23,502 nucleotides of DNA from a virus. The translations under genes were made by a program, and so were the position numbers. Location of the stretch: the UHGV virus genome UHGV-0080740; one strand, given 5' to 3'. This document shows positions 1,172-23,335 of the stretch, in pieces (position 1 is the stretch's first letter; every line of letters begins with the position of its first letter). Below the pieces are notes generated by a model. It was not told where the DNA came from. It saw nothing but the letters and a program-made list of their open reading frames with translations, and made no database searches.

Positions 1172-4100
1172 GTGGTGTTTTTTATTCCTGATGTTTTTTT
1201 GTTGTGGTTTCAGAACGGTGAGATTCGGGGCCCGCGCGTTAGCGTGGGAGGTGCTCCTGTTCTTGGTACTGATGGCACTCCAGTTATGCGCGATGCCCTA
1301 AAACTGGCAGATGAAGCCACTATCACGGCGCGGATGAACGCGATCCCGCACTCAAATTACCGTGCAGTCGTGTTTACCAAAGAACAATACGCCCGCATTC
1401 CGCTACGTGATGACACCGTAGATGAGCATGCACAGGATATGCTTTATGACTTCGTTGCCGCCGGGCGCGTAGCCAGCGCAATGGACTCCGACTCCCACCG
1501 CAAAGAGGCCGCGCGTCGCCGGGTATTGTCGGAGTATTCAGATACCGGTACCGAAAAAGCAGAGAAGTATCCGTACTTTGAGGATATGGGCTTCGATAGT
1601 GTGATCGCTGACGAAGGTCACAACTACCGCAATAGCTATAAAAATGGTCGCGAAGCGTCACAACTGGCCTATCTGCCCACCAGCGCGGTGGCGCAATCGG
1701 CGCGGGATATGGCAATTAAAAACGCGTACCTGATGAAAAAGAATGGTGGGCGCGGACCGGTTCTCCTGACTGCAACGCCAGTCGTTAACACCCCGATCGA
1801 TGCATACAACATGCTTTCTCATGTGCTGCCGAAGGAATACTGGCAGAAGATGGGGATCTACGGTCCTGATGACTTCGTTAAATTCTTCGGCAAGACCAGG
1901 CTGGAAACGGTACAGAAAATCAGCGGTGAAGTTGAAGAAAAAATGGCGCTGGTGGGCTTTGAAAACCTTGATGCGCTGCGCGGCATATTCCATCGCTGGA
2001 CAACGCTTAAAACGGCGGAAGACGTTAAGGATACCGTGGAGATCCCGGAACTGGACGAACACCAGCAGGATGCACCACTTACTGAAGAACAACTGGCGGC
2101 GTATGAAGAATTACGCCAGCAGGCGGAAGCGGTGGCCAAAGCCAACAATGGCGTAACGACCTCGGTCGATGAAGACGGAGTGATTGAGCACGAGAAAGCC
2201 CGTCCGATCTTCTCAATAATCAGGGATATGGACCGCGTATGTACTGACATGGACCTGTACTATCGCCGGATCACCTATCGTTTCCTGCCGGAGTACGCCG
2301 ATGCGGTGCAGCAGCTGGCGGACAGTTTGCCTAAACAAGCCACCAGCGAAGACGACGACAGTGATGATTCAATCACGCAGCAATCGCAATACTCCCTGAT
2401 AGATAAGGGCGAGTTTATTCAGTTGCAGGTTCCGGAAGCGTTCGAGCAGGAAGTGAATAAGCGCCTGGCCAGGTTTGGCATTGACGAACAGACCGTAACT
2501 CACCCCGTTACGCCCAAATACGCGAAGCTGATTGCCACGCTGAAGGAGTTTTTCCCGGAAGGGAAGCAAATCATCTTCACCGACGAAAAAACGCAGCACC
2601 AGAAGCTCAAGCGCATTATCTGCAATGTTCTTAACCTTGAACCTTCAATGGTAGGGATCCTGAATGCTCAGACGGTTGCCGAGGCAGGTAAAACCGGTAA
2701 GAAACTGAAAGCGGTTAAACCGCCGAAAGAGTTACCGGATGAACCAACAGATGCACAGATAGCGAAATACAACGAGCAAATGGCTCTGTATGACGCCTAT
2801 ATCGCGCAGCAAAATGAAATGTCGTTGGGCGGTCTGGAAAAGATTGCAGCCGACTTCCAGGAGGGCCGGACTCCGATCATTATCTGCAACAAAAAGGCAG
2901 AGGTGGGTATCAACCTGCATCGAGGAACGACTGACATCCATCATCTGACGTTGCCATGGACACCAGCCAGTGTCGCACAGCGTAACGGTCGCGGTGCCCG
3001 AGTTGGCTCCAACCGTGCAAGCGTTCGCGTTCATTACTACTGCGGCAAGGGTTCTTTCGATGAATACCGACTGAAGACGCTGAAGCGTAAAGCAGGCTGG
3101 ATCTCCGATATCCTCCGTTCAGATAAGTCAGAAATGGAGAACGCCGACGCCAACGATATGATCGAAATGCAGATGTATACCGCTAAGGATGATGGCGAAC
3201 GTCTGGCAATGATGCAGGTTCAAATGGATAAGGCGAAAGCCGCGCAACGCGCCCGCCAGAAAGAACAGGCCGCTATCGACCTTCAGAACTACATCAAGGC
3301 GCAACATGCAGCTGGCGAGGATGTTGCGGCTCTTACCGCTGAATTAGAGCGAAGTAAAGCGGAACTTGAAAAGACCACCGCCGAGGTAGCTAAATTCAAA
3401 CAGGCGGTAATGGCCAAAGCAGCTGATAATGCAGGCTGGAAGGCCCGCTGGGGTAGCGTCCATCACACAGACCGTACGTTGTTAGCACATTATCGCGCGT
3501 CGTTGAAAAGCGCCATTCAGCGCAAGGCTAATATCACTCAAGCCATCTCCCGCTATGAGAAATTATTGAACCGTACTCAGAAGGCCGCGACGGATATCAA
3601 ACGCCTGCGCCCGCTGGTGGAGGATGCAATAAATAAAGGCATTCTGGATGTTGATCCTGATCTGGTTAACCATGCGAATGAGTTCCTTGTTATCGGCGAT
3701 CGCTCATGGCGTGTAGGCCAATACTACGATTGTGCCGGTGATATCGTTCGCATTAAGTCGCTGGACTTCGACAGCCAGCGCGCAGACGTGGAGATCATCT
3801 TTACCTTCAAAGGCACCAAATCGGGTAACTGGGATGTGAAGACGCTGGATAAACAGGTGGATGTAACTCCCGATGAAGATGCTGTTATGCAGAAAATCAG
3901 TGGTGGCGTCTCCATCGCCGGGATTAACGACATCATTTCCTGTGACGATTTCTACCGTTTCCAGCAGCGCGGCATGATCAAAATCACTGACTCATACGGC
4001 GTTCAGACTACAGAGTCAGGCTATAGCATTGATTTTGTTGGTACCTATACGGACCCACTGAAGCATGCGGTTTACCCGGATCGCCGTGACGGCGCGCTGA

Positions 4101-5224
4101 AGTCGTCAATTGCAAAATGGGTGCTTGGTATGATGTCGGAAGGGAATAACCGCCAGGTCCGTTTGGCAGAAGTATTCCTGACTGAACTGTTTGGCTCCAA
4201 TTATGGCGAAGTAATCGCGTCATACGGAGATACGCTATCCCCTGAAGCAATTCAGGAGAAAATAGCGGATGCGATCGCCAGAATGCCGGAGAAAACAAGC
4301 CAGGGGGCTACTCGTAACGGGGATTCTGAACTTGAGGTCACCAATGCCATTTTCGGTACCCATGAGTTCCGGGCGTCAGATTATGAGATCACCACAGCAC
4401 AGTTTGGCACCATTGGCATTTACAGCAATAAAGACGAGATCAAGCAGGCAATGGACGCTGCAAGCGCGCGTATTGCAGCAGAACGGAAAGCCAATCTGAA
4501 TCATGCAGTCGCCGCGCTGACTCAATCGTGGGTAACAGCAATCAGGGAGGCCGCCACCACAGGGAAAATCACACCGGCAATTGCGGATGTCGTAAACGAC
4601 GGCTCTAAATTTATGGATGCCTATCAAATGGATGCGGTGCAGTTGCCATCAGCCTATGGGCAACTCAGCTATCGCATGACCTACAACCTGGTATCAATGT
4701 TTTCCGACCTTGCCATCCTTGGGCTGGTGGACCTTAACGAGGTTACGCCGGAATTGCTTAGCATGCGCAAGAATCATGTTGAGATATTGCAGAGAATTAA
4801 CACGGTTCTTGCCGGGCGCACCGATGAAGAGAAACAGGCCGACGCTGATCGGATAAACCTGGCCCTAGGCAACATCACGGAGGAAGAAATTGCCGCCAGA
4901 AACGAGAAACAAGAAGAGTTATCATCAATACAGGGTGATGCCACCAGCATAGCTCAGTCTCTTGGTCTGAATTATCGCGTATCCACCGCCGACCTGAAGA
5001 TGATGTACGCACCAAAATTCGCAGCTGGTGAGGTATTTGGGCTTCAGGAGGCGTCCGGCATGAAAGGCGTTCTTTTCCGTGCTAAAGACGCAATCAAGGA
5101 AAAATTCGGCGCTCGCTGGCTGCCAGCGAAGGCGAAGAACAGCGATTTCCCGGGCAACTGGTGGATTATCGAGACAAAACACAACGTGGCGGACGTTCTG
5201 GCCGTCATCCAACAATACGCATAA
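1172..5224 (+). CDS. darB: SF2 helicase-domain protein, DarB-like, apparently 5'-truncated (1350 aa from GTG)
   Basis: Helicase motifs II (IADEGH), III (TATPVVN) and VI (QRNGRGARVG) present, no Walker A upstream; in-frame TGA at 1145-1147; position upstream of ulx/lxc-like genes fits P1 darB (about 2255 aa, recalled). Confidence 0.6.
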   Translation: MVFFIPDVFLLWFQNGEIRGPRVSVGGAPVLGTDGTPVMRDALKLADEATITARMNAIPHSNYRAVVFTKEQYARIPLRDDTVDEHAQDMLYDFVAAGRVASAMDSDSHRKEAARRRVLSEYSDTGTEKAEKYPYFEDMGFDSVIADEGHNYRNSYKNGREASQLAYLPTSAVAQSARDMAIKNAYLMKKNGGRGPVLLTATPVVNTPIDAYNMLSHVLPKEYWQKMGIYGPDDFVKFFGKTRLETVQKISGEVEEKMALVGFENLDALRGIFHRWTTLKTAEDVKDTVEIPELDEHQQDAPLTEEQLAAYEELRQQAEAVAKANNGVTTSVDEDGVIEHEKARPIFSIIRDMDRVCTDMDLYYRRITYRFLPEYADAVQQLADSLPKQATSEDDDSDDSITQQSQYSLIDKGEFIQLQVPEAFEQEVNKRLARFGIDEQTVTHPVTPKYAKLIATLKEFFPEGKQIIFTDEKTQHQKLKRIICNVLNLEPSMVGILNAQTVAEAGKTGKKLKAVKPPKELPDEPTDAQIAKYNEQMALYDAYIAQQNEMSLGGLEKIAADFQEGRTPIIICNKKAEVGINLHRGTTDIHHLTLPWTPASVAQRNGRGARVGSNRASVRVHYYCGKGSFDEYRLKTLKRKAGWISDILRSDKSEMENADANDMIEMQMYTAKDDGERLAMMQVQMDKAKAAQRARQKEQAAIDLQNYIKAQHAAGEDVAALTAELERSKAELEKTTAEVAKFKQAVMAKAADNAGWKARWGSVHHTDRTLLAHYRASLKSAIQRKANITQAISRYEKLLNRTQKAATDIKRLRPLVEDAINKGILDVDPDLVNHANEFLVIGDRSWRVGQYYDCAGDIVRIKSLDFDSQRADVEIIFTFKGTKSGNWDVKTLDKQVDVTPDEDAVMQKISGGVSIAGINDIISCDDFYRFQQRGMIKITDSYGVQTTESGYSIDFVGTYTDPLKHAVYPDRRDGALKSSIAKWVLGMMSEGNNRQVRLAEVFLTELFGSNYGEVIASYGDTLSPEAIQEKIADAIARMPEKTSQGATRNGDSELEVTNAIFGTHEFRASDYEITTAQFGTIGIYSNKDEIKQAMDAASARIAAERKANLNHAVAALTQSWVTAIREAATTGKITPAIADVVNDGSKFMDAYQMDAVQLPSAYGQLSYRMTYNLVSMFSDLAILGLVDLNEVTPELLSMRKNHVEILQRINTVLAGRTDEEKQADADRINLALGNITEEEIAARNEKQEELSSIQGDATSIAQSLGLNYRVSTADLKMMYAPKFAAGEVFGLQEASGMKGVLFRAKDAIKEKFGARWLPAKAKNSDFPGNWWIIETKHNVADVLAVIQQYA

Positions 5225-6937: not shown

Positions 6938-7627
6938 ATGGAAGTTATCTACATAGTAGAACCAATCATTTCCACAAGCACTAACAAGTTGATAGCAGTG
7001 GAAGTGTTGAGCAGATTTTATTCCAACGAGGGGGCTATTCTTTCTACTCAGAAAGTATTAGGTATGTTTACAAGCAAGATGAAGATTAACTTGCTAAAAT
7101 CTCAACTTAACACAATAATCAAATATAAGTATTTTTTTGAATGCCATAATATATTATGCTCTATCAATGTAGATTATGATACCTGTTTATATATATATGG
7201 CAATAAACAAATTCAAGAACTACTAATAAACAATAAATTTATAGCGATTGAGATATCAGAAAACTATCCTGATTTAAGCGATGAGGATTACATCATATCC
7301 TTTCTACTGACTTTGACAGATAATGTTTGGCTTGATGATTTTGGAAGTGGTAACGCCACCATGAAAGCATTAATTAAAAATAAATATCATGCAATAAAAC
7401 TTGATAAGTCATTTTTTCAAGAGCATATGATTAAGCCTCATTTTGATGTCATTATTAGCAATTTAAAAAAGTTATGTCCGAATATCATCGCTGAAGGCGT
7501 CGAAAACATTGATTGTCATAAGTTATCAAAAGGGATAGGGCTATGGGGCACTCAGGGATATTTTTTCCCATCAATTCCGCTGACGGAGATTGAGTCCATA
7601 GATAGTAAGTGGCTATCAGATTTATGA
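6938..7627 (+). CDS. stand-alone EAL-domain protein, YdiV-like, 229 aa
   Basis: EAL signatures in order: EVLSR (EAL variant), EISE, DDFGSGNATMKAL, KLDKSF, EGVE, QGYFF; no sensor or GGDEF domain; strong SD GGGTGGGAG. Confidence 0.8.
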   Translation: MEVIYIVEPIISTSTNKLIAVEVLSRFYSNEGAILSTQKVLGMFTSKMKINLLKSQLNTIIKYKYFFECHNILCSINVDYDTCLYIYGNKQIQELLINNKFIAIEISENYPDLSDEDYIISFLLTLTDNVWLDDFGSGNATMKALIKNKYHAIKLDKSFFQEHMIKPHFDVIISNLKKLCPNIIAEGVENIDCHKLSKGIGLWGTQGYFFPSIPLTEIESIDSKWLSDL

Positions 7628-8321: not shown

Positions 8322-8882
8322 TTAGTGCATGATGTTTGCCATCTCATAGGCGTCAGCCAGTAACTCCATCTCTGACTTGTTCAGCAGGGTGAATTCTTTC
8401 TTGCCTCCAACCACACCATCGGCATGAACAGGGACCAGCCAGGGGTATTTTGCTCTTACTTCAGCCGGAGCTGCATGCTGGTGGTGCCATCTACAAAGAG
8501 GCAATTGCTTTTTATGACAACCCGGCGCGGTACGACCGGCGATATGGTGCAGAGACATCTCATTAGATATTACTCCATGCATATAGCAGGCAATGCAGGG
8601 GAGAGTGCCAAGAGCATTGGCGATGCGCCGTTCCTCCGCCGTTGGTGTTCTCCCCTTCAAGCCACGAGATTTTATTTTTACCGCGCTTTTCCGCGTTTTG
8701 CTGGCTGGTGGGCGCTCTTTCTGTTTAGCGATACGGCGGTCGAGAGTATCCCGCATTTTCTGATATTGAGATTCTCGCCAGACCGGATCAGCCAACTTCT
8801 CCCGTTGCCGAGCGATCGCTCGTTCTCTGGCTGCCTTCTGCCACTTGCGGCACTGTTCAATTTTTTGTTCGATTGTTTTCAT
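8322..8882 (-). CDS. ref: Ref, HNH-family recombination enhancement endonuclease, 186 aa
   Basis: MKTIEQKIEQCRKWQ... with Cys/His cluster CIACYMHG...HHIAG...CHKK...CRWHH, recognised as P1 Ref; C1 operator upstream. Confidence 0.9.
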   Translation of the reverse strand: MKTIEQKIEQCRKWQKAARERAIARQREKLADPVWRESQYQKMRDTLDRRIAKQKERPPASKTRKSAVKIKSRGLKGRTPTAEERRIANALGTLPCIACYMHGVISNEMSLHHIAGRTAPGCHKKQLPLCRWHHQHAAPAEVRAKYPWLVPVHADGVVGGKKEFTLLNKSEMELLADAYEMANIMH

Positions 8883-8980: not shown

Positions 8981-8997
8981 CGATCTATTAGAGCAAT
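8981..8997 (-). promoter_or_regulatory. C1 operator (Op2-like) overlapping ref promoter
   Basis: - strand ATTGCTCTAATAGATCG matches C1 operator consensus ATTGCTCTAATAAATTT; TATAAT follows on - strand. Confidence 0.75.
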
Positions 8998-9491: not shown

Positions 9492-10523
9492 CTAATCGCC
9501 ATCTTCCAGAAGGCGCACCATTGCCCCTGTTTCACTATCCAGGTTACGGATATAGTTCATGACAATATTTACGTTGGTCCAGCCACCAGCTTGCATGATC
9601 TCCGGTATTGAAACTCCGGCACGGGCCATATCTCGCGCGGCTCCGACACGGGCACTGTGTCCAGACCAGGCCAGGTACCTCTGGCCAGAGTCATCCTTAG
9701 CCCCGTAAATCAATCGGTGAGTTGCTTCAAAAATCCCTTCCAGGGCGCGAGTTGATAGCTGGCTGGTGGGTGATGGCGAGGCAACACCATTTTTTCTGAC
9801 CCGGCAAAACAAGTAGTTATTCGGATCATCAGCCACACCAGAGACAGAAATCCATCGTTCGACCAGTTTAGTTACCCCCAGGCTAAGTGCCTTCTCTACA
9901 CCCGCGGTACTAACCAGAGTTTTCGTTCTGCCAATATGGATTAGCATTCTCCCACCGTCTGTACGTGAGATATCTTTAACCCTGATCCTGGCAATTTCGG
10001 CTATACGTAACAGGGTGTTATAAGCGATCCCCAGAAATGCCAGATTACGTATATCCTGGCAGCGATCGCTATTTTCCATGAGTGAACGAACCTGGTCGAA
10101 ATCAGTGCGTTCGAACGCCAATGCCTGTTTTGCACGTTCACCGGCATCAACGTTTTCTTTTCGAATCCGCCGCATGACCAGTGAAACAGCATTGCTGTCA
10201 CTTGGTCGTGGCAGCCCGGACCGACGATGAAGCATGTTTAGCTGGCCCAAATGTTGCTGGATAGTTTTTACTGCCAGACCGCGCGCCTGAAGATATAGAA
10301 GATAATCGCGAACATCTTCAGGTTCTGCGGGAAACCACTTCCGGTTATTCAACTTGCACCATGCCGCCCACGACCGGCAAACGGACAGAAGCATTTTCCA
10401 GGTATGCTCAGAAAACGCCTGGCGATCCCTGAACATGTCCATCAGGTTCTTGCGAACCTCATCACTCGTTGCATCGACCGGTAATGCAGGCAAATTTTGG
10501 TGTACGGTCAGTAAATTGGACAT
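9492..10523 (-). CDS. cre: Cre tyrosine recombinase, 343 aa
   Basis: MSNLLTVHQNLPALPVDATSDEVRKNLMDMFRDRQAFSEHTWK... recognised as P1 Cre with a few substitutions; loxP 419 bp upstream. Confidence 0.97.
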   Translation of the reverse strand: MSNLLTVHQNLPALPVDATSDEVRKNLMDMFRDRQAFSEHTWKMLLSVCRSWAAWCKLNNRKWFPAEPEDVRDYLLYLQARGLAVKTIQQHLGQLNMLHRRSGLPRPSDSNAVSLVMRRIRKENVDAGERAKQALAFERTDFDQVRSLMENSDRCQDIRNLAFLGIAYNTLLRIAEIARIRVKDISRTDGGRMLIHIGRTKTLVSTAGVEKALSLGVTKLVERWISVSGVADDPNNYLFCRVRKNGVASPSPTSQLSTRALEGIFEATHRLIYGAKDDSGQRYLAWSGHSARVGAARDMARAGVSIPEIMQAGGWTNVNIVMNYIRNLDSETGAMVRLLEDGD

Positions 10524-10941: not shown

Positions 10942-10975
10942 ATAACTTCGTATAATGTATGCTATACGAAGTTAT
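10942..10975 (+). other. loxP: loxP recombination site (34 bp)
   Basis: Exact ATAACTTCGTATA-ATGTATGC-TATACGAAGTTAT. Confidence 0.99.
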
Positions 10976-11018: not shown

Positions 11019-11035
11019 AGAATTATTAGAGCAAT
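11019..11035 (-). promoter_or_regulatory. C1 operator (Op99-like)
   Basis: + strand gaattattagagcaat is the reverse complement of the operator consensus. Confidence 0.7.
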
Positions 11036-11095: not shown

Positions 11096-11122
11096 TTGAC
11101 AATTGCTCTAATAAATTATAGT
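11096..11122 (+). promoter_or_regulatory. coi-c1 promoter with embedded C1 operator (P99-like)
   Basis: TTGACA (11096-11101), ATTGCTCTAATAAATT (11102-11117), TATAGT -10 (11117-11122). Confidence 0.75.
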
Positions 11123-11356: not shown

Positions 11357-11566
11357 ATGGCTTTCATTCAACCAACCATCGACGACGTTAGACATTGCTC
11401 TAACGCTTTATCTGTAGACCCTGCCGAAACCGACGCTGCCCGCACCATTGCTGAACACTACTCAAAGATATCCAATCAGGACTACCGCATCACCCAAGAC
11501 GACCTGGATGACCTCACTGACACAATCGAATATCTCATGGCAACTAACCAGTTAGCCTCACAGTAA
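11357..11566 (+). CDS. coi: Coi, C1 inactivator, 69 aa
   Basis: 69-aa ORF directly upstream of c1 downstream of the operator cluster; size and position match P1 Coi. Confidence 0.8.
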   Translation: MAFIQPTIDDVRHCSNALSVDPAETDAARTIAEHYSKISNQDYRITQDDLDDLTDTIEYLMATNQLASQ

Positions 11567-11583
11567 ATGCACTAATAAATCTA
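11567..11583 (+). promoter_or_regulatory. C1-operator-like site between coi and c1
   Basis: atgcactaataaatcta; core tgcActaataaat has 1 mismatch to the consensus core. Confidence 0.45.
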
Positions 11584-11676: not shown

Positions 11677-12528
11677 ATGATAAATTATGTCTACGGCGAA
11701 CAACTGTACCAGGAGTTCGTCAGCTTCAGGGATCTCTTTCTAAAAAAAGCTGTTGCACGCGCCCAACACGTTGATGCCGCCAGCGACGGTCGTCCTGTTC
11801 GCCCGGTTGTCGTTCTGCCGTTCAAAGAAACGGACAGCATTCAGGCTGAAATTGATAAATGGACTTTAATGGCGCGGGAACTGGAACAGTACCCAGACCT
11901 CAATATCCCAAAGACTATTTTATATCCAGTGCCTAACATCCTTCGCGGTGTACGTAAGGTTACAACTTATCAGACAGAAGCTGTGAACAGCGTCAACATG
12001 ACCGCTGGCCGCATTATTCATCTGATTGATAAGGATATTCGCATCCAAAAAAGCGCGGGGTTCAATGAGCACAGTGCGAAATACATAGAGAACCTGGAAG
12101 CAACAAAAGAGCTAATGAAGCAGTACCCGGAGGATGAAAAATTCCGTATGCGCGTACACGGCTTTAGCGAAACAATGCTGCGCGTCCACTACATTTCCAG
12201 TAGCCCTAACTACAATGATGGTAAATCAGTTAGTTACCATGTGCCACTGTGTGGCGTGTTTATCTGCGATGAAACCCTCCGTGATGGAATCATCATCAAC
12301 GGTGAATTCGAGAAAGCAAAATTTAGCCTTTATGACTCCATAGAACCGATCATCTGCGACCGCTGGCCGCAGGCAAAAATATATCGCCTGGCAGATATTG
12401 AAAATGTAAAAAAACAAATTGCCATCACTCGCGAAGAGAAAAAGGTCAAATCAGCCGCATCAGTTACGCGCAGTCGTAAAACTAAGAAGGGGCAGCCAGT
12501 AAACGACAACCCCGAAAGCGCGCAATAA
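11677..12528 (+). CDS. c1: C1 repressor of lysis, 283 aa
   Basis: MINYVYGEQLYQEFVSFRDLFLKKAVARAQ... recognised as P1 C1; SD GGAGG. Confidence 0.95.
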   Translation: MINYVYGEQLYQEFVSFRDLFLKKAVARAQHVDAASDGRPVRPVVVLPFKETDSIQAEIDKWTLMARELEQYPDLNIPKTILYPVPNILRGVRKVTTYQTEAVNSVNMTAGRIIHLIDKDIRIQKSAGFNEHSAKYIENLEATKELMKQYPEDEKFRMRVHGFSETMLRVHYISSSPNYNDGKSVSYHVPLCGVFICDETLRDGIIINGEFEKAKFSLYDSIEPIICDRWPQAKIYRLADIENVKKQIAITREEKKVKSAASVTRSRKTKKGQPVNDNPESAQ

Positions 12529-12531
12529 ATT

Positions 12532-12553
12532 ATGCCCGGCATCAACCGGGCAT
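12532..12553. terminator. hairpin terminator between convergent c1 and antirepressor-like gene
   Basis: atgcccgg-catcaa-ccgggcat, A/T-rich flanks on both sides. Confidence 0.5.
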
Positions 12554-12560
12554 TCTTCCA

Positions 12561-13706
12561 TTATTCAGCCGCCACCGGTTTTAACAAGCCAGCATCGAGC
12601 AGTTTACGCGTCAACCACTGTTGTCCTTTCCCCGTTAATTGGGGCGTCAGCCGTATCTGGTAGCCATCTTCATCATCCAGCACCACTTCTTTCACTGTGA
12701 AATATCCGGCGTTTATGTACTGCTGGAACGGCACATTTTTACGCCCGCCGGACGCTATCAGAATGCCGTTCTCCCGTAACCAGGCAAACAGCGCGTTTTG
12801 CTTCAGCCCAACAACCTTTGCAAAATTACCAATCAGGATCCCCTTAGCCACTGATACACGGTCGGCAAAATCGACCTTGGGGGCTGCGGCCACCAGTTGT
12901 TGATTTAGCTGGTGGGCCTTCTGTTCCAGTAGCTGCTTTTGTTCAGCCAGCTCGGCAGCCAGGCGCAAGGCTTCAGGTAGTGTTTGGGGGATTGCGACCG
13001 GTTGCTGTTCTTTTTGCCGGAAGTAGCTGTCTTCCAGTTTTTCAAAGAATGCCCATGCTTCATCTGTGTTTACGATCTTAGACATGCGTGCCGCTCCGCG
13101 TTCGGCCCAAAGAATTACCTGGCTTGTATATTTGCTAACCAGGTGACTAGTAGTCACCAGCCTTTTAAATTCCTTTAATTTTGAACCAGTTAAGAGATAG
13201 TAATGCTTACCTTCTTCAAAGCGATCGGAGTTGCGAGACAAATTTTTACGAATATTAGCTTCATCGGTTCCATACCCCTTAGCAAGAGTTTCGGTCGTTA
13301 CTACACGCACTCCCAGCCATTCCAGAACGGGAATTTCATCAGACTGATTCTGAACAACCACCAGCTCTGATTCCTGAACTGAAGTTGCATGAATTTTTTC
13401 TGATTTAACGTTAGTTGCTTTCATTCTGTGTGCCTCCTTGCGTGCTTCGGCTGCGACGGTTGCGTAATTCAGATGACCCTGTTCGAGCAGGTATTCACGG
13501 ATATCGGTCACAGCGATAGCCTTTAAGCGCAGATAAACATCGCGCTTATCGACATCCAGATGCGGGTATTCCTTTTCAAGAATTGCTGCGAGTTCTTTCG
13601 CTGATAGAAGAGATTTAGTGCGGATCATGTAATCCGCAATCTCGTACGATGTTATTCGTGAGTGATTTATTTCCATGAAGTGGCGTCCCTGCCAGTTAAG
13701 TAACAT
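12561..13706 (-). CDS. antirepressor-like protein with KilA-N/ORF6N-type and KilAC (ANT) domains, 371-381 aa
   Basis: Central segment VRVVTTETLAKGYGTDEANIRKNLSRNSDRFEEGKHYYLLTG fits ORF6N/KilA-N; C-terminus GILIGNFAKVVGLKQNALFAWLRENGIL...NVPFQQYINAGYFTV fits KilAC; alternative start at 13676. Confidence 0.7.
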   Translation of the reverse strand: MLLNWQGRHFMEINHSRITSYEIADYMIRTKSLLSAKELAAILEKEYPHLDVDKRDVYLRLKAIAVTDIREYLLEQGHLNYATVAAEARKEAHRMKATNVKSEKIHATSVQESELVVVQNQSDEIPVLEWLGVRVVTTETLAKGYGTDEANIRKNLSRNSDRFEEGKHYYLLTGSKLKEFKRLVTTSHLVSKYTSQVILWAERGAARMSKIVNTDEAWAFFEKLEDSYFRQKEQQPVAIPQTLPEALRLAAELAEQKQLLEQKAHQLNQQLVAAAPKVDFADRVSVAKGILIGNFAKVVGLKQNALFAWLRENGILIASGGRKNVPFQQYINAGYFTVKEVVLDDEDGYQIRLTPQLTGKGQQWLTRKLLDAGLLKPVAAE

Positions 13707-13776
13707 CCTGTCACCTACTGATTAGCCCATGTCAACTAATCAACGTCGAATATAATACCCTCGATTAAAGAAATAG

Positions 13777-13793
13777 CAATACATTAGAGCAAT
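13777..13793 (-). promoter_or_regulatory. C1 operator upstream of the antirepressor-like gene
   Basis: - strand ATTGCTCTAATGTATTG followed by TATTAT -10-like. Confidence 0.6.
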
Positions 13794-13794
13794 T

Positions 13795-14841
13795 TTATCT
13801 AACGCTCGACGAATGACTTGTGATAGCGCCGACTCCAAGCGCGTAATCAAAGAACAATCGTTGATGCATCGCCAGCCTACCGTGCGTCTTCTCCCAATTA
13901 TCGCGGTCACGCTCAATATCACGCTGGCATGACTGGCACAGAGGAATAGCATAAATGTCATGCGCGCATAATCGACTATAACGAACGATATAAGGCGTAA
14001 TGTGAGCGCCAGCTCCCGCCGCTCCACACCCACAGCATGGACGGGAAGCAACAAAGTCCATGTACTCAGGTAATTTTAGCGATTGCAGTTTTGGTATTTT
14101 GAAATGCGCCATACCTGGGTCGGAGTCAACATCCACAGGGCATACTTTTGCACGCATCGGCGCGGCGCGTTCTTCCATCATCTGAACATATGCTGTAGCG
14201 CGATCGTCATACGGGCGAATATCCGCCTCTTTCAGTGGTCCGCTATCCTGCGGAGTAGCCTTCATCTTATTTATTATTGATATGCGGCAGACTTCTTCCG
14301 GCATCAGGTGCATCATGTTGCGCATGAAAGCCCACCAGCACAGCTCCTGAATACTTAAATCATGGCTATTTGAAAGGCCCATTTCCTGACGGGCGACATC
14401 CAGTATCCAGTTAACGCGATTATTGTGCAGCGTTTCTTTCAGCTCATTAAAACCACGCATCCGGTAATGGTTATCGTGATGCCAGCACAACAACACCGCG
14501 CTATTGTCTCGTTCAGCGTGGACAATATGGTTGTCACACCAACTACGATCTGCGGCCTGGCATTGACCCTCTTTCCTACGCAACCACGCCACCAGCGCGT
14601 CAATTCCACCAATACGGCGAAACAGTTCATCGCTGTTAAAAAACGGCTGCAACGCCTCATTTGTTGCCATGGTTTGCTCGGTAACAACGAGGCCGTCTTC
14701 CATGTGCTCGATTAACTCACGCGGCACCGGCTCCATAATAAATTTACGGCCAGCCTCCACCAGCTTTCTGACCTCCTGATCCACTTTGAACGTGGCGAGG
14801 CCAAGCTCTTTCTGTACAAAGGGAGTAATTACGGCTTTCAC
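13795..14841 (-). CDS. hypothetical protein, 348 aa, with C-terminal Cys/His cluster
   Basis: GTG start with SD AAAGG; C-terminus PCCGCG...HITPY...[15 protein letters not shown] resembles a zinc/HNH-like module; possibly pdcB-position gene. Confidence 0.6.
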
Positions 14842-14868
14842 ATCACACCTTTAATCACTGATTGGGCT

Positions 14869-15048
14869 TTATCTGCTGCCCGACATTATCTGTTTAAGCA
14901 CAACCATTTCCTGACGGCATAACACAGCAATAGCGGTCCTGGCACCAATTTGCTTACTAACCAGGTATTGCTTTATCTTGCGGCGACTCACGCCATCAAG
15001 AAGCATCTTTAACGCTTTACGGGACAATTTGTTGTATTTGCGTGCCAT
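14869..15048 (-). CDS. small basic protein, 59 aa (post-doc position)
   Basis: ATG at 15048 with SD GGAG 8 nt upstream, 4 nt after doc stop; track ORF extends to 15069 inside doc. Confidence 0.45.
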   Translation of the reverse strand: MARKYNKLSRKALKMLLDGVSRRKIKQYLVSKQIGARTAIAVLCRQEMVVLKQIMSGSR

Positions 15049-15052
15049 TAAT

Positions 15053-15433
15053 CTACTCCGCAGAACCATACAATCTACGTAACGTGGCGGCGACAGAAGA
15101 TACAGATATCTCGCCAGTCGCAGCGCCTACAGTAAGGTCTGCCAGTTCAGGTGAATCAAATACCTGCACCCCGTTACGGCGTAGAAATAGCAGCGCACTG
15201 TTTAGCGCGGTACGCTTATTGGCATCATTGAATATATGCCCTCTCGCTGTAGCCACCAGGTAGGTGGCGGAGACTTCGAAAAGGTCGGTGATCTCTTCGT
15301 AGGCAACTCTGGCCTGAACTCTCCCGATAATGGCCTCTGCCCTACCCGGATCTGACATTCCCGGCAGGCCGCCGTAGCGGTTTATATTCGCATCATGAAG
15401 CGCAATAAGTTCTTCCGGTGATATATGCCTCAT
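15053..15433 (-). CDS. doc: Doc toxin (Fic-fold kinase), 126 aa
   Basis: [40 protein letters not shown]... recognised as P1 Doc; TAATG overlap with phd. Confidence 0.95.
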
Positions 15434-21177: not shown

Positions 21178-21194
21178 TTATTTATTAGAGCAAT
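21178..21194 (-). promoter_or_regulatory. C1 operator
   Basis: - strand ATTGCTCTAATAAATAA, 15/17 to consensus; at the 3' end of the HAD-like gene, upstream of the micro-ORF/ASCH operon. Confidence 0.7.
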
Positions 21195-23318: not shown

Positions 23319-23335
23319 GGAATTATTAGAGCAAT
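23319..23335 (-). promoter_or_regulatory. C1 operator, inverted relative to the neighbouring site
   Basis: + strand ggaattattagagcaat. Confidence 0.65.

Follow-up and report, generated by a model that had tools for sequence, protein, structure and literature searches.

The gene that lies next to the c1 repressor gene in this P1-like element raises the question of whether an additional immunity circuit is present there, or whether a gene of this kind has come about in some other way. In the stretch of DNA analysed here (virus genome UHGV-0080740, 23,502 nucleotides, called the window in what follows), a preliminary description had noted an ORF with an ORF6N/KilA-N-type domain and a KilAC (ANT) C-terminus directly downstream of c1, with a C1-operator-like 17-mer and a -10 element in front of it, and had proposed that an antirepressor-type gene wired to C1 at this position looks like a rearranged or extra immunity circuit. 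Our analysis indicates that the ORF is very probably an in-frame fusion which arose when a P1-like plasmid prophage underwent an illegitimate deletion, and that it is most likely a tolerated by-product of the decay from prophage to plasmid and not a purpose-built circuit. The features of the locus are the following:

11677-12528, plus strand: c1, encoding the repressor (283 aa) and convergent to the fusion ORF; 281 of 283 residues as in P1 C1.100
12532-12553, no strand assigned: hairpin separating the stop codons of c1 and ant, with a 9-bp stem containing 6 GC pairs
12561-13706, minus strand: chimeric ORF of 381 aa, Lpa(1-66)::Ant1-type(57-371), delimited by Pfam, the blast split and protein alignment
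12561-13508, minus strand: ant1/ant2-derived part of the ORF (Ant1-type codons 57-371, with ORF6N and KilAC), corresponding to the ant that adjoins c1 in RCS47, JL22 and HB-Coli0
12561-13424, minus strand: putative internal Ant2-like product (M95-E381, 287 aa), from sequence reading and alignment with P1 ant2
13509-13706, minus strand: lpa-derived part of the ORF (codons 1-66); 198 of 198 nt identical to P1 lpa
13752-13779, minus strand: sigma-70 promoter Plpa (formerly P94), from a promoter scan; maps onto the annotated P1 -35/-10
13777-13793, minus strand: C1 operator Olpa (formerly Op94), overlapping the -35; 17 of 17 positions identical to the annotated P1 operator
13795-14841, minus strand: pdcB (DUF968/HNH); Pfam DUF968, E=1.2e-48

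When the 381-aa ORF was searched with Pfam, ORF6N (PF10543) was found at aa 128-211 (E=4.9e-17) and ANT/KilAC (PF03374) at aa 269-370 (E=2.8e-32), which confirmed an antirepressor-like ORF convergent with c1, its stop lying 32 bp from the end of that gene. The ORF6N/KilA-N-type domain of the preliminary description was borne out as ORF6N but not as KilA-N. No KilA-N (PF04383) match was obtained on the whole ORF at E<=0.01, nor on residues 94-219 (the ORF6N region) even at E<=10, while a P1 KilA control gave E=2.8e-21; since the N-module has no PF04383 match, 'KilA-N-type' is a loose label for it. A further match, to BPP1_LPA, was located at aa 15-74 (E=2.6e-22) and comprises only positions 1-60 of the 131 in the profile; full-length Lpa of P1/RCS47 covers positions 1-130. 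This Lpa N-terminus (residues 1-66) had been missed before. The possibility that the Lpa-like segment is native to Ant was considered and rejected, as RCS47 Ant and P1 Ant1 have no BPP1_LPA match in Pfam. A search of 1.84 billion representative proteins with Lpa 1-66 recovered P1-type Lpa N-termini and, apart from them, just a few distant homologues of Lpa; no Ant protein of a phage unrelated to P1 was among the matches. The RefSeq name of the fusion protein is 'phage antirepressor Ant'. A PDB sequence search returned just spurious L9 matches (E=0.001) and no relative, and AlphaFold2, run on the 381 aa with an 11-sequence alignment, yielded an unusable model (mean pLDDT 39.6, pTM 0.28).

On the other side of the 32-bp gap, c1 is intact, its product being 99% identical to C1 of P1, and it is annotated as C1 in all relatives. 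The hairpin at 12532-12553 is followed by a T-rich tail when read on the minus strand and is kept in the plasmids pMRE162 and pMTY9803; from its sequence, it is likely to be a bidirectional terminator of c1 and ant.

Upstream of the ORF, the operator at 13777-13793 reads ATTGCTCTAATGTATTG on the minus strand and shares 14 of 17 positions with the C1 consensus ATTGCTCTAATAAATTT; it is one of 7 operator-like sites observed in the whole window, versus 0.13 expected by chance. In P1 records, the identical sequence bears the annotation 'c1 repressor binding site / Olpa'. The promoter is composed of a -35 TTGCTA (13779-13774), a 16-nt spacer and a -10 TATTAT (13757-13752). Both hexamers are identical to those of P1, and the untranslated leader is that of P1 lpa bar one substitution. 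The 17-mer and its -10 element were thus correctly recognized in the preliminary description, but they are not the antirepressor's own: by sequence, the predicted C1 operator and promoter ahead of the ORF are Olpa and Plpa of P1 itself, which normally belong to the late activator gene lpa. Next to them lies pdcB, the usual upstream neighbour of lpa, which occupies the same place in P1 and RCS47, and the window from 13509 to 15100 is 98.5% identical to P1.

These data bear directly on the idea of a native, dedicated KilA-like antirepressor with a C1 operator of its own, that is, of a purpose-made extra immunity locus. The layout of the protein, with a DNA-binding-type N-module followed by KilAC, does parallel that of P1 KilA, and there is a real C1 operator sequence with a promoter ahead of the ORF. 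However, the operator, the promoter, the leader (with the one exception mentioned) and codons 1-66 all correspond to P1 lpa, and the Lpa profile is matched at just 60 of its 131 positions. In the intact relatives, moreover, ant1 has another N-terminus and is accompanied by an icd, a C4 and an operator of its own, with pacAB-lpa intervening. Because the junction is chimeric, we regard the native gene as refuted and scarcely credible any longer.

The position of the junction was obtained from megablast/blastn, which split the region into 12401-13505, matching the ant of RCS47, and 13509 onward, matching lpa and pdcB of P1/RCS47; the sequence at the junction is GCTGTG/ACCGAT (13509/13508). In RCS47, the two matching pieces are 3,763 bp apart, and the ant1 5' end, icd, the C4 RNA, pacB, pacA and the lpa 3' part are what the window is missing by comparison. 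The source of the ant part is a second immI-like unit located between pacB and c1 and consisting of a C1 operator, C4 RNA, icd and ant1/2, which is found in many P1-like plasmids (RCS47, pTZ20_1P) and also in JL22 and the HB-Coli0 plasmid. In RCS47, its C4 RNA was detected by Rfam (RF01695, 75 bits), as was C4 in P1 immI, and its C1-operator-like site aligns with P1 Oc4. No C4 RNA was found in the 23.5-kb window at Rfam gathering thresholds, and icd, present in RCS47, HB-Coli0 and P1, is absent between Plpa and the ORF.

From this comparison, we infer an ancestor similar to RCS47 or the HB-Coli0 plasmid, with the order c1, convergent ant1/ant2, icd, C4 RNA with its own C1 operator, pacB, pacA, lpa and pdcB. 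The loss of about 3.76 kb joined lpa codon 66 to ant1 codon 57 and took with it, besides the ant1 5' end and icd, the C4 antisense RNA together with its promoter and operator, both terminase genes and the pac site, as well as the C-terminal 84 codons of Lpa (residues 67-150 of 150). That the deletion occurred in a single step is an inference, since the direct parent of the exact fusion allele was not recovered. Homologous recombination between lpa and ant1 was rejected as its origin, since the similarity is confined to a short patch and the microhomology at the breakpoint amounts to 0-2 nt with the alleles available. A deletion mediated by an IS was also considered: in phi456, an IS1 does lie between ant and pdcB, but the junction in the window carries no IS remnant. 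On the alignments, the structural reading of the ORF as a chimera and deletion scar is secure.

Canonical P1 has pacB next to c1, and its ant1/ant2 and kilA lie about 45 kb away, in immI and kilA-repL. P1 thus has no such gene at this position, as the preliminary description had supposed. An ant gene at c1 is nevertheless not the unusual arrangement it had been taken for: in 391 of 5,426 complete E. coli genomes c1 is followed directly by a convergent ant gene, this order is annotated in RCS47, and ant convergent with c1 among P1 relatives is noted in PMC6906374. Moreover, the connection to C1 is ancestral, since the intact cassette has its own C1 operator and C4 RNA; through the deletion, only the operator was exchanged and the C4/icd layer lost. 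Of the rearranged or extra immunity circuit that had been proposed, the rearrangement stands, in the form of an lpa-ant chimera, while the new kind of circuit does not, as the ancestral cassette already bore a C1 operator. The fusion is a rearrangement scar and not a new kind of immunity circuit.

Four complete plasmid records, representing two strains, have the same junction base for base: three are of pMRE162, sequenced from different laboratory clones of a single strain, and the fourth is pMTY9803_untypable1. The exact fusion protein is encoded on 168 contigs or more, which come from many assemblies (361 index blocks). This independent recurrence refutes the notion that lpa and ant were brought together by faulty assembly or chimeric reads, a possibility to which we attach practically no probability. 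In the 10 places examined with the exact protein, the local synteny was constant and the outer cargo varied. Other lpa'-'ant1 and lpa'-icd junctions exist at different positions. The reading frame was followed directly for three lpa'-'ant1 junction types only, 66/57, 34/27 and 126/27, which are all in frame; two of the three are widespread, and the 34/27 allele, present on 120 contigs or more, is combined with either of two ORF6N alleles. Out-of-frame cases (P0135, P0140) and amber-terminated variants also exist, and in the databases the Lpa N-terminus is joined to many different tails. Judged from these sequences, lpa is a recurrent deletion breakpoint.

The variety of Lpa fragments also speaks to the proposal that Lpa(1-66) is the functional part of the fusion, a dominant-negative or decoy form that would block late transcription of incoming P1-like phages (exclusion), with Ant as a mere carrier. 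Such a role would be in line with the 100% conservation of the Lpa fragment DNA, with its predicted production exactly upon C1 inactivation and with the frequency of Lpa N-terminal fragments in the databases. However, the sister fusion retains just 34 Lpa residues and the other truncations end at many positions, so that no particular Lpa fragment is conserved, and we consider a decoy function very improbable.

Both complete carriers, pMRE162 and pMTY9803, are degraded P1-derived plasmids. In the parts of them that were examined, terminase, icd and kilA/repL were not found and ant occurs only as the fusion; both plasmids are rich in IS elements and cargo genes. In pMRE162 the fusion ORF has acquired a nonsense mutation, which argues for its dispensability, although the clones concerned have been held in the laboratory. 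The deletion of pacA/pacB and of the lpa 3' part leaves an element with neither terminase nor late activator. Having lost the genes for late-promoter activation and packaging, the element would, to judge from its gene content, be a plasmid and not a phage. [quoted passage not shown]

For the possible consequences of the fusion, the roles of Ant1/Ant2, C4 and Lpa were taken from P1 annotation and PMC8546580. The antirepressor now stands behind Plpa/Olpa and would be silenced in the maintained state by C1 and its corepressor. Upon inactivation of C1, a transcript should be made that gives the 381-aa Lpa'-Ant1 hybrid, to which the internal GGAGG-ATG at M95 would add the Ant2-like protein of 287 aa. 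The ATG of M95 lies at 13424-13422 with GGAGG 8 nt upstream (13437-13433); M95 aligns with the annotated ant2 start of P1, and the PGAP annotation of pSF10EC-2 uses an Ant2 start of the M95 type. The antirepressor is predicted to be gated now by C1 alone and, by analogy with P1, antagonism of C1 by an Ant1/Ant2 complex derived from the fusion is expected. If C1 binding like that of P1 Ant1/Ant2 were retained, a double-negative loop that depends only on C1 and is independent of C4 would be formed; with the late genes gone, this loop would have little left to switch on. The activator function of Lpa is presumably lost in the fusion, since Lpa residues 67-150 are missing. In this way, the deletions would incidentally have shifted the antirepressor from dual control, by C1 and C4 RNA, to control by C1 alone.

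It could be argued that this shift was adaptive and that the in-frame lpa'-'ant1 fusion was selected as a useful C4-independent, C1-gated antirepressor. It may then act as a bistable latch derepressing the remaining C1 regulon, or as a sensor of superinfecting P1-like phage inactivating C1. The three distinct lpa'-'ant1 junctions all being in frame would fit with this, as would the abundance of the 66/57 and 34/27 alleles, the latter with its two ORF6N alleles. Further, the ORF has remained intact and identical while the outer cargo of the plasmid lineage, which is at least as old as a 1949 isolate, diversified, and the Ant2 start is preserved with its Shine-Dalgarno. However, identical sequences imply recent clonal spread and therefore provide no power to detect purifying selection. 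The premature stop in pMRE162 and the occurrence of out-of-frame and amber-terminated variants also count against it, and the many unrelated lpa truncations fit selection against lytic functions, not for Ant. Even three of three junctions in frame corresponds to p of about 0.04 at best, with two of the events sharing a breakpoint and maybe not being independent. We therefore deem selection of the fusion unlikely, and find it just as doubtful that selection has favoured the recurrent lpa'-'ant1 fusions in domesticated P1 plasmids as a simpler form of immunity, a C1/Ant toggle whose antirepressor has shed its C4 RNA/icd brake and come under the late-activator operator. If true, such a toggle could flip the remaining C1 regulon or answer superinfecting P1-like phages.

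Taken as a deletion fusion tolerated during plasmid decay, the ORF has its chief value for correct annotation, being mistakable for a novel immunity gene. It is also a marker of a P1-derived plasmid lineage without terminase and late activator, and provides an example, at the level of single bases, of the decay from phage-plasmid to plasmid. Should the fusion proteins prove active, nature would have provided in this lineage a test case of a repressor/antirepressor toggle reduced to its minimum. The current view of P1 regulation is not challenged by the fusion.

Among known systems, P1 KilA has the same arrangement of two modules ending in KilAC/ANT; unlike KilA, the fusion has ORF6N as its N-module, and KilA itself is expressed from PkilA/OrepL, upstream of repL. 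Alignment to the P1 proteins, in agreement with the antirepressor affinity first proposed, showed 60% identity to the KilAC domain of KilA over 164 aa and 76% identity to P1 Ant2 over the 179 aa of the shared C-terminal part, the divergence from Ant2 lying mostly at the N-terminal end of this stretch. Roi-type proteins of lambdoid/Stx phages likewise combine ORF6N and KilAC and are 44-56% identical within aa 115-376 (tblastn). To our knowledge, Roi-type ORF6N-KilAC genes are found in other genomic contexts, have no Ant1/Ant2 dual start and have no link to C1 operators.

The carriers of the fusion resemble the P1-derived plasmids described by Pfeifer & Rocha (2024) and pJIE250-3 (Venturini 2019), which have a P1 backbone without terminase and lytic-replication genes and are rich in IS elements and cargo; as far as these papers were searched, they describe neither the lpa'-'ant junction nor the operator swap that results from it. 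With P1 immI (Oc4/Op51, C4, icd, ant1/ant2), the fusion further shares the Ant1-specific linker segment and a putative internal in-frame Ant2 start, at the same aligned position. It differs from immI in having no icd, C4 RNA or Oc4-type operator at its locus, in the replacement of the first 56 Ant1 codons by 66 Lpa codons, and in its middle domain, which is ORF6N and is not present in P1 Ant; moreover, the fusion adjoins c1, whereas P1 immI adjoins kilA-repL. The second immI-like cassette, the direct source of the ant part, has the same position, orientation and terminator, with 87-100% nucleotide identity, but its ant1 is complete (370-371 aa), it also carries icd, C4 RNA and a C1-operator-like site of its own, and pacB-pacA-lpa come next. 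Finally, with P1 lpa (gene 10) the fusion has in common the operator, the promoter hexamers, codons 1-66 and pdcB upstream; where P1 lpa continues with residues 67-150, the frame of the fusion runs on into ant.

The window represents a plasmid prophage of the P1 type, and both cre and loxP are kept in this degraded element. The landmarks around the gene under study are the following:

9492-10523, cre, intact
10942-10975, loxP, perfect 34-bp site
11357-11566, coi
11677-12528, c1, product 281/283 identical to P1 C1
12532-12553, strong hairpin between c1 and the fusion ORF
12561-13706, minus strand, fusion ORF of 381 aa
13795-14841, minus strand, pdcB/DUF968

After c1, the minus strand carries the 381-aa ORF, pdcB/DUF968, pdcA, doc, phd and humD, and 32 bp separate the end of the ORF from the c1 stop codon. 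The preliminary description had placed an antirepressor-like ORF with a KilAC (ANT) C-terminus next to c1, and Pfam bore this out (aa 269-370, E=2.8e-32). The ORF6N/KilA-N-type domain also described proved to be ORF6N (aa 128-211, E=4.9e-17); the product is not a KilA-N protein. A further match, to BPP1_LPA, the P1 late-promoter-activating protein, was found at aa 15-74 (E=2.6e-22) and covers 60 of the 131 profile positions, those at the N-terminal end. An AlphaFold model of the fusion protein from a shallow alignment was uninformative, and no relatives were found in the PDB.

Up to codon 66, the coding sequence is identical to P1 lpa at 198/198 nt. Past this codon the DNA no longer matches lpa and matches the ant gene convergent to c1 in the P1-like phage RCS47, in JL22, vB_EcoM-673R5 and many plasmids. 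Lpa(1-66) is joined in frame with Ant1-type residues 57-371, the junction being GCTGTG/ACCGAT at 13509/13508. The internal ATG at 13424-13422 (M95) is kept with GGAGG upstream, and initiation there would yield an Ant2-like product of 287 aa. In protein alignments, RCS47-type Ant and P1 Ant1 share an Ant1-specific N-terminal segment, an internal Met corresponding to the P1 ant2 start and closely related C-terminal KilAC domains, whereas ORF6N forms the middle of RCS47-type Ant and is missing from P1 Ant. In this middle domain, the ant alleles are mosaic (window ~12990-13300 versus RCS47 ant): the overall identity of 87% reflects one strongly divergent segment between flanks of at least 95%, and at least three ORF6N allele types circulate, those of the window and database protein P0002, of RCS47 and of database protein P0020.

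It had also been proposed that the antirepressor is wired to C1 through an operator-like 17-mer with a -10 element. The site, at 13777-13793, is one of 7 C1-operator-like sites in the window, where 0.13 would be expected by chance, and a sigma-70-type promoter, TTGCTA-16-TATTAT, overlaps it. In P1 records, the annotation ahead of lpa (gene 10) comprises a ribosome-binding site, a mapped start of transcription, the -10/-35 elements of Plpa (formerly P94) and the 'c1 repressor binding site' Olpa (formerly Op94). When the window was aligned with P1 and RCS47, the operator (17/17) and both promoter hexamers were identical, and the upstream neighbour pdcB is the same in window and P1. Together with the 198 identical nucleotides of lpa, these matches identify the operator before the antirepressor as the well-known control region of the late-gene activator lpa, its first 66 codons still attached. 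The operator is thus genuine by its identity to Olpa, but operator and promoter belong to lpa. Six more operator-like 17-mers lie at 8981-8997, 11019-11035, 11102-11118, 11566-11582, 21178-21194 and 23319-23335; by position, three correspond to P1 Oc1e, Oc1d and Oc1a (immC region) and one to OpmgT (formerly Op88), upstream of pap-side genes, and one of the six is directly upstream of ref. As predicted sites, the operators of the C1 regulon are mostly kept despite the defective phage.

RCS47 has the order c1, ant (371 aa), a 578-bp gap, pacB, pacA, lpa, pdcB, pdcA and doc; the genes of the HB-Coli0 plasmid are arranged likewise, and there icd is annotated. In the gap upstream of RCS47 ant lie a reading frame for icd (in the related plasmid L005, its product shows clear homology to P1 Icd), a C1-operator-like site aligning with P1 Oc4/Op51 and, by Rfam, a C4 antisense RNA (RF01695, 75 bits). 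The cassette next to c1 is therefore a second copy of the immI operon; the canonical c4-icd-ant1-ant2-kilA-repL locus is also kept in RCS47. The leader of the second cassette is of the isrK type (Rfam, 60 bits, positions 8782-8860 of the RCS47 locus L001, upstream of C4) and not of the P1 type, where the c4-a1b1 target-site family occupies this place. An 'ash family protein' CDS called by PGAP between icd and pacB in another P1-like locus (L025, 8581-8700), where RCS47 has the C4 RNA, is probably a spurious ORF call over the RNA gene.

The two blocks matching the fusion ORF are 3,763 bp apart in RCS47 coordinates. Lost relative to RCS47 are ant1 codons 1-56, icd, the C4 RNA with its promoter and operator, pacB, pacA (which contains the pac site in P1, according to the P1 annotation), the late promoter LPpac and lpa codons 67-150; no C4 RNA was detectable with Rfam anywhere in the window. 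With the alleles available, microhomology at the junction is at most 2 nt, which points to illegitimate rather than homologous recombination. Judged from sequence, we regard this structural account of the fusion as highly probable.

An assembly artefact was excluded: four complete plasmid records (three of pMRE162, each from another laboratory clone of one strain isolated in 1949, and one of pMTY9803_untypable1) agree base for base at the junction, and at least 168 contigs (361 index blocks) carry exactly this 381-aa protein. In all 10 places examined, the ORF lies between pdcB and c1, while more distant flanks differ. In this region, pMRE162 differs from the window by two substitutions only, a TCA-to-TAA nonsense change in the fusion ORF (~13183) and, 2 bp ahead of the -10 hexamer of Plpa, a change from G to T (~13760).

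In the window, a 1350-aa helicase-related ORF (1172-5224) appears to be an N-terminally truncated form of a 2255-aa protein at the same position in L020, another carrier; the latter has N6_Mtase and helicase Pfam matches, and we take it to be DarB-like. An EAL-domain gene (6938-7627, 229 aa, PF00563, E=2e-17) is flanked by the ref side of the P1 backbone and by its darB side; it is missing from those regions of P1 that were examined and probably represents cargo. With the cellulose-synthase (bcs) operon of the complete carriers, it may form a c-di-GMP-related cargo linkage. Where the two complete carriers were examined, the annotation shows no gene for terminase, icd or kilA/repL, few P1 structural genes are left, IS elements are many, and the cargo includes genes for cellulose synthase, for an EAL-domain protein and for an autotransporter. 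The carriers are P1-derived plasmids, not phages, in line with gene loss as a documented route by which P1-like phage-plasmids turn into plasmids (PMC10879196).

The arrangement had been read as a rearranged or extra immunity circuit. Rearranged it is, at the lpa/ant junction, but ant convergent with c1 is the more common layout. Of 5,426 complete E. coli genomes, about 700 match a query that runs across the 3' ends of c1 and ant, and in 391 of these c1 and ant are contiguous; the layout has been noted for pTZ20_1P and RCS47 (PMC6906374). Deletions between lpa and the cassette have happened several times with differing endpoints. One variant, Lpa 1-34 joined to Ant1 27-370, is in frame (378 aa); it is combined with either of two ORF6N alleles and was found on at least 120 contigs. 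Another joins Lpa 1-126 to Ant1 27-41, followed by an amber codon, and a third joins Lpa 1-61 out of frame to icd. Against 1.84 billion representative proteins, Lpa 1-66 gave only 21 matches, mostly P1-type Lpa N-termini on unrelated tails, including PacA in frame. Evidently, lpa is a frequent breakpoint when P1-like elements shed lytic functions. The Lpa N-terminus ends between about residues 49 and 126 (proteins P0135-P0144; loci L004, L005 and L008), its partners being PacA in frame, icd out of frame, a pacA fragment with out-of-frame ant1, and several unrelated tails. The Lpa 1-126 and 1-34 fusions have the same ant1-side breakpoint, ATA/CCGGGC at codon 27 (L004 ~5330, L008 ~3243), each with a 2-nt 'TA' microhomology, pointing either to a history in several steps or to a hotspot of breakage.

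In P1, C1 represses lpa, the Ant1/Ant2 complex antagonises C1, and C4 RNA blocks icd/ant translation (P1 annotation; PMC8546580). Here, the fusion ORF stands behind Plpa/Olpa with C1 intact, and C4, icd, the late activator and terminase are gone. In the maintained plasmid, C1 would keep the fusion silent; once C1 activity falls, Plpa would fire and yield both the long hybrid and the short, Ant2-like protein, in-frame translation of the lpa' segment replacing the icd translation on which ant expression normally depends. If both forms keep C1-binding activity, derepression would be reinforced in a double-negative loop without an RNA brake. The product is about equally likely to be active or inactive. 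Late genes and packaging are absent, as is lytic replication in the sequenced carriers, which leaves little for such a switch to control; on these grounds, we rate the fusion as a by-product of decay that is tolerated, and adaptive significance as very unlikely.

No description of the lpa'-'ant junction or of the operator swap was found in the literature searched. The parts are all known: Olpa/Plpa with lpa, the Ant1/Ant2 family, ORF6N-KilAC (Roi-like) proteins and the second immI cassette of RCS47-type elements. The fusion ORF has the domains of the Ant family but lacks two regulatory features that help define immI, icd coupling and C4 control; it is not a full-length Lpa, nor does it belong to the KilA-N proteins. 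What is new is only this particular junction and the operator swap resulting from it.
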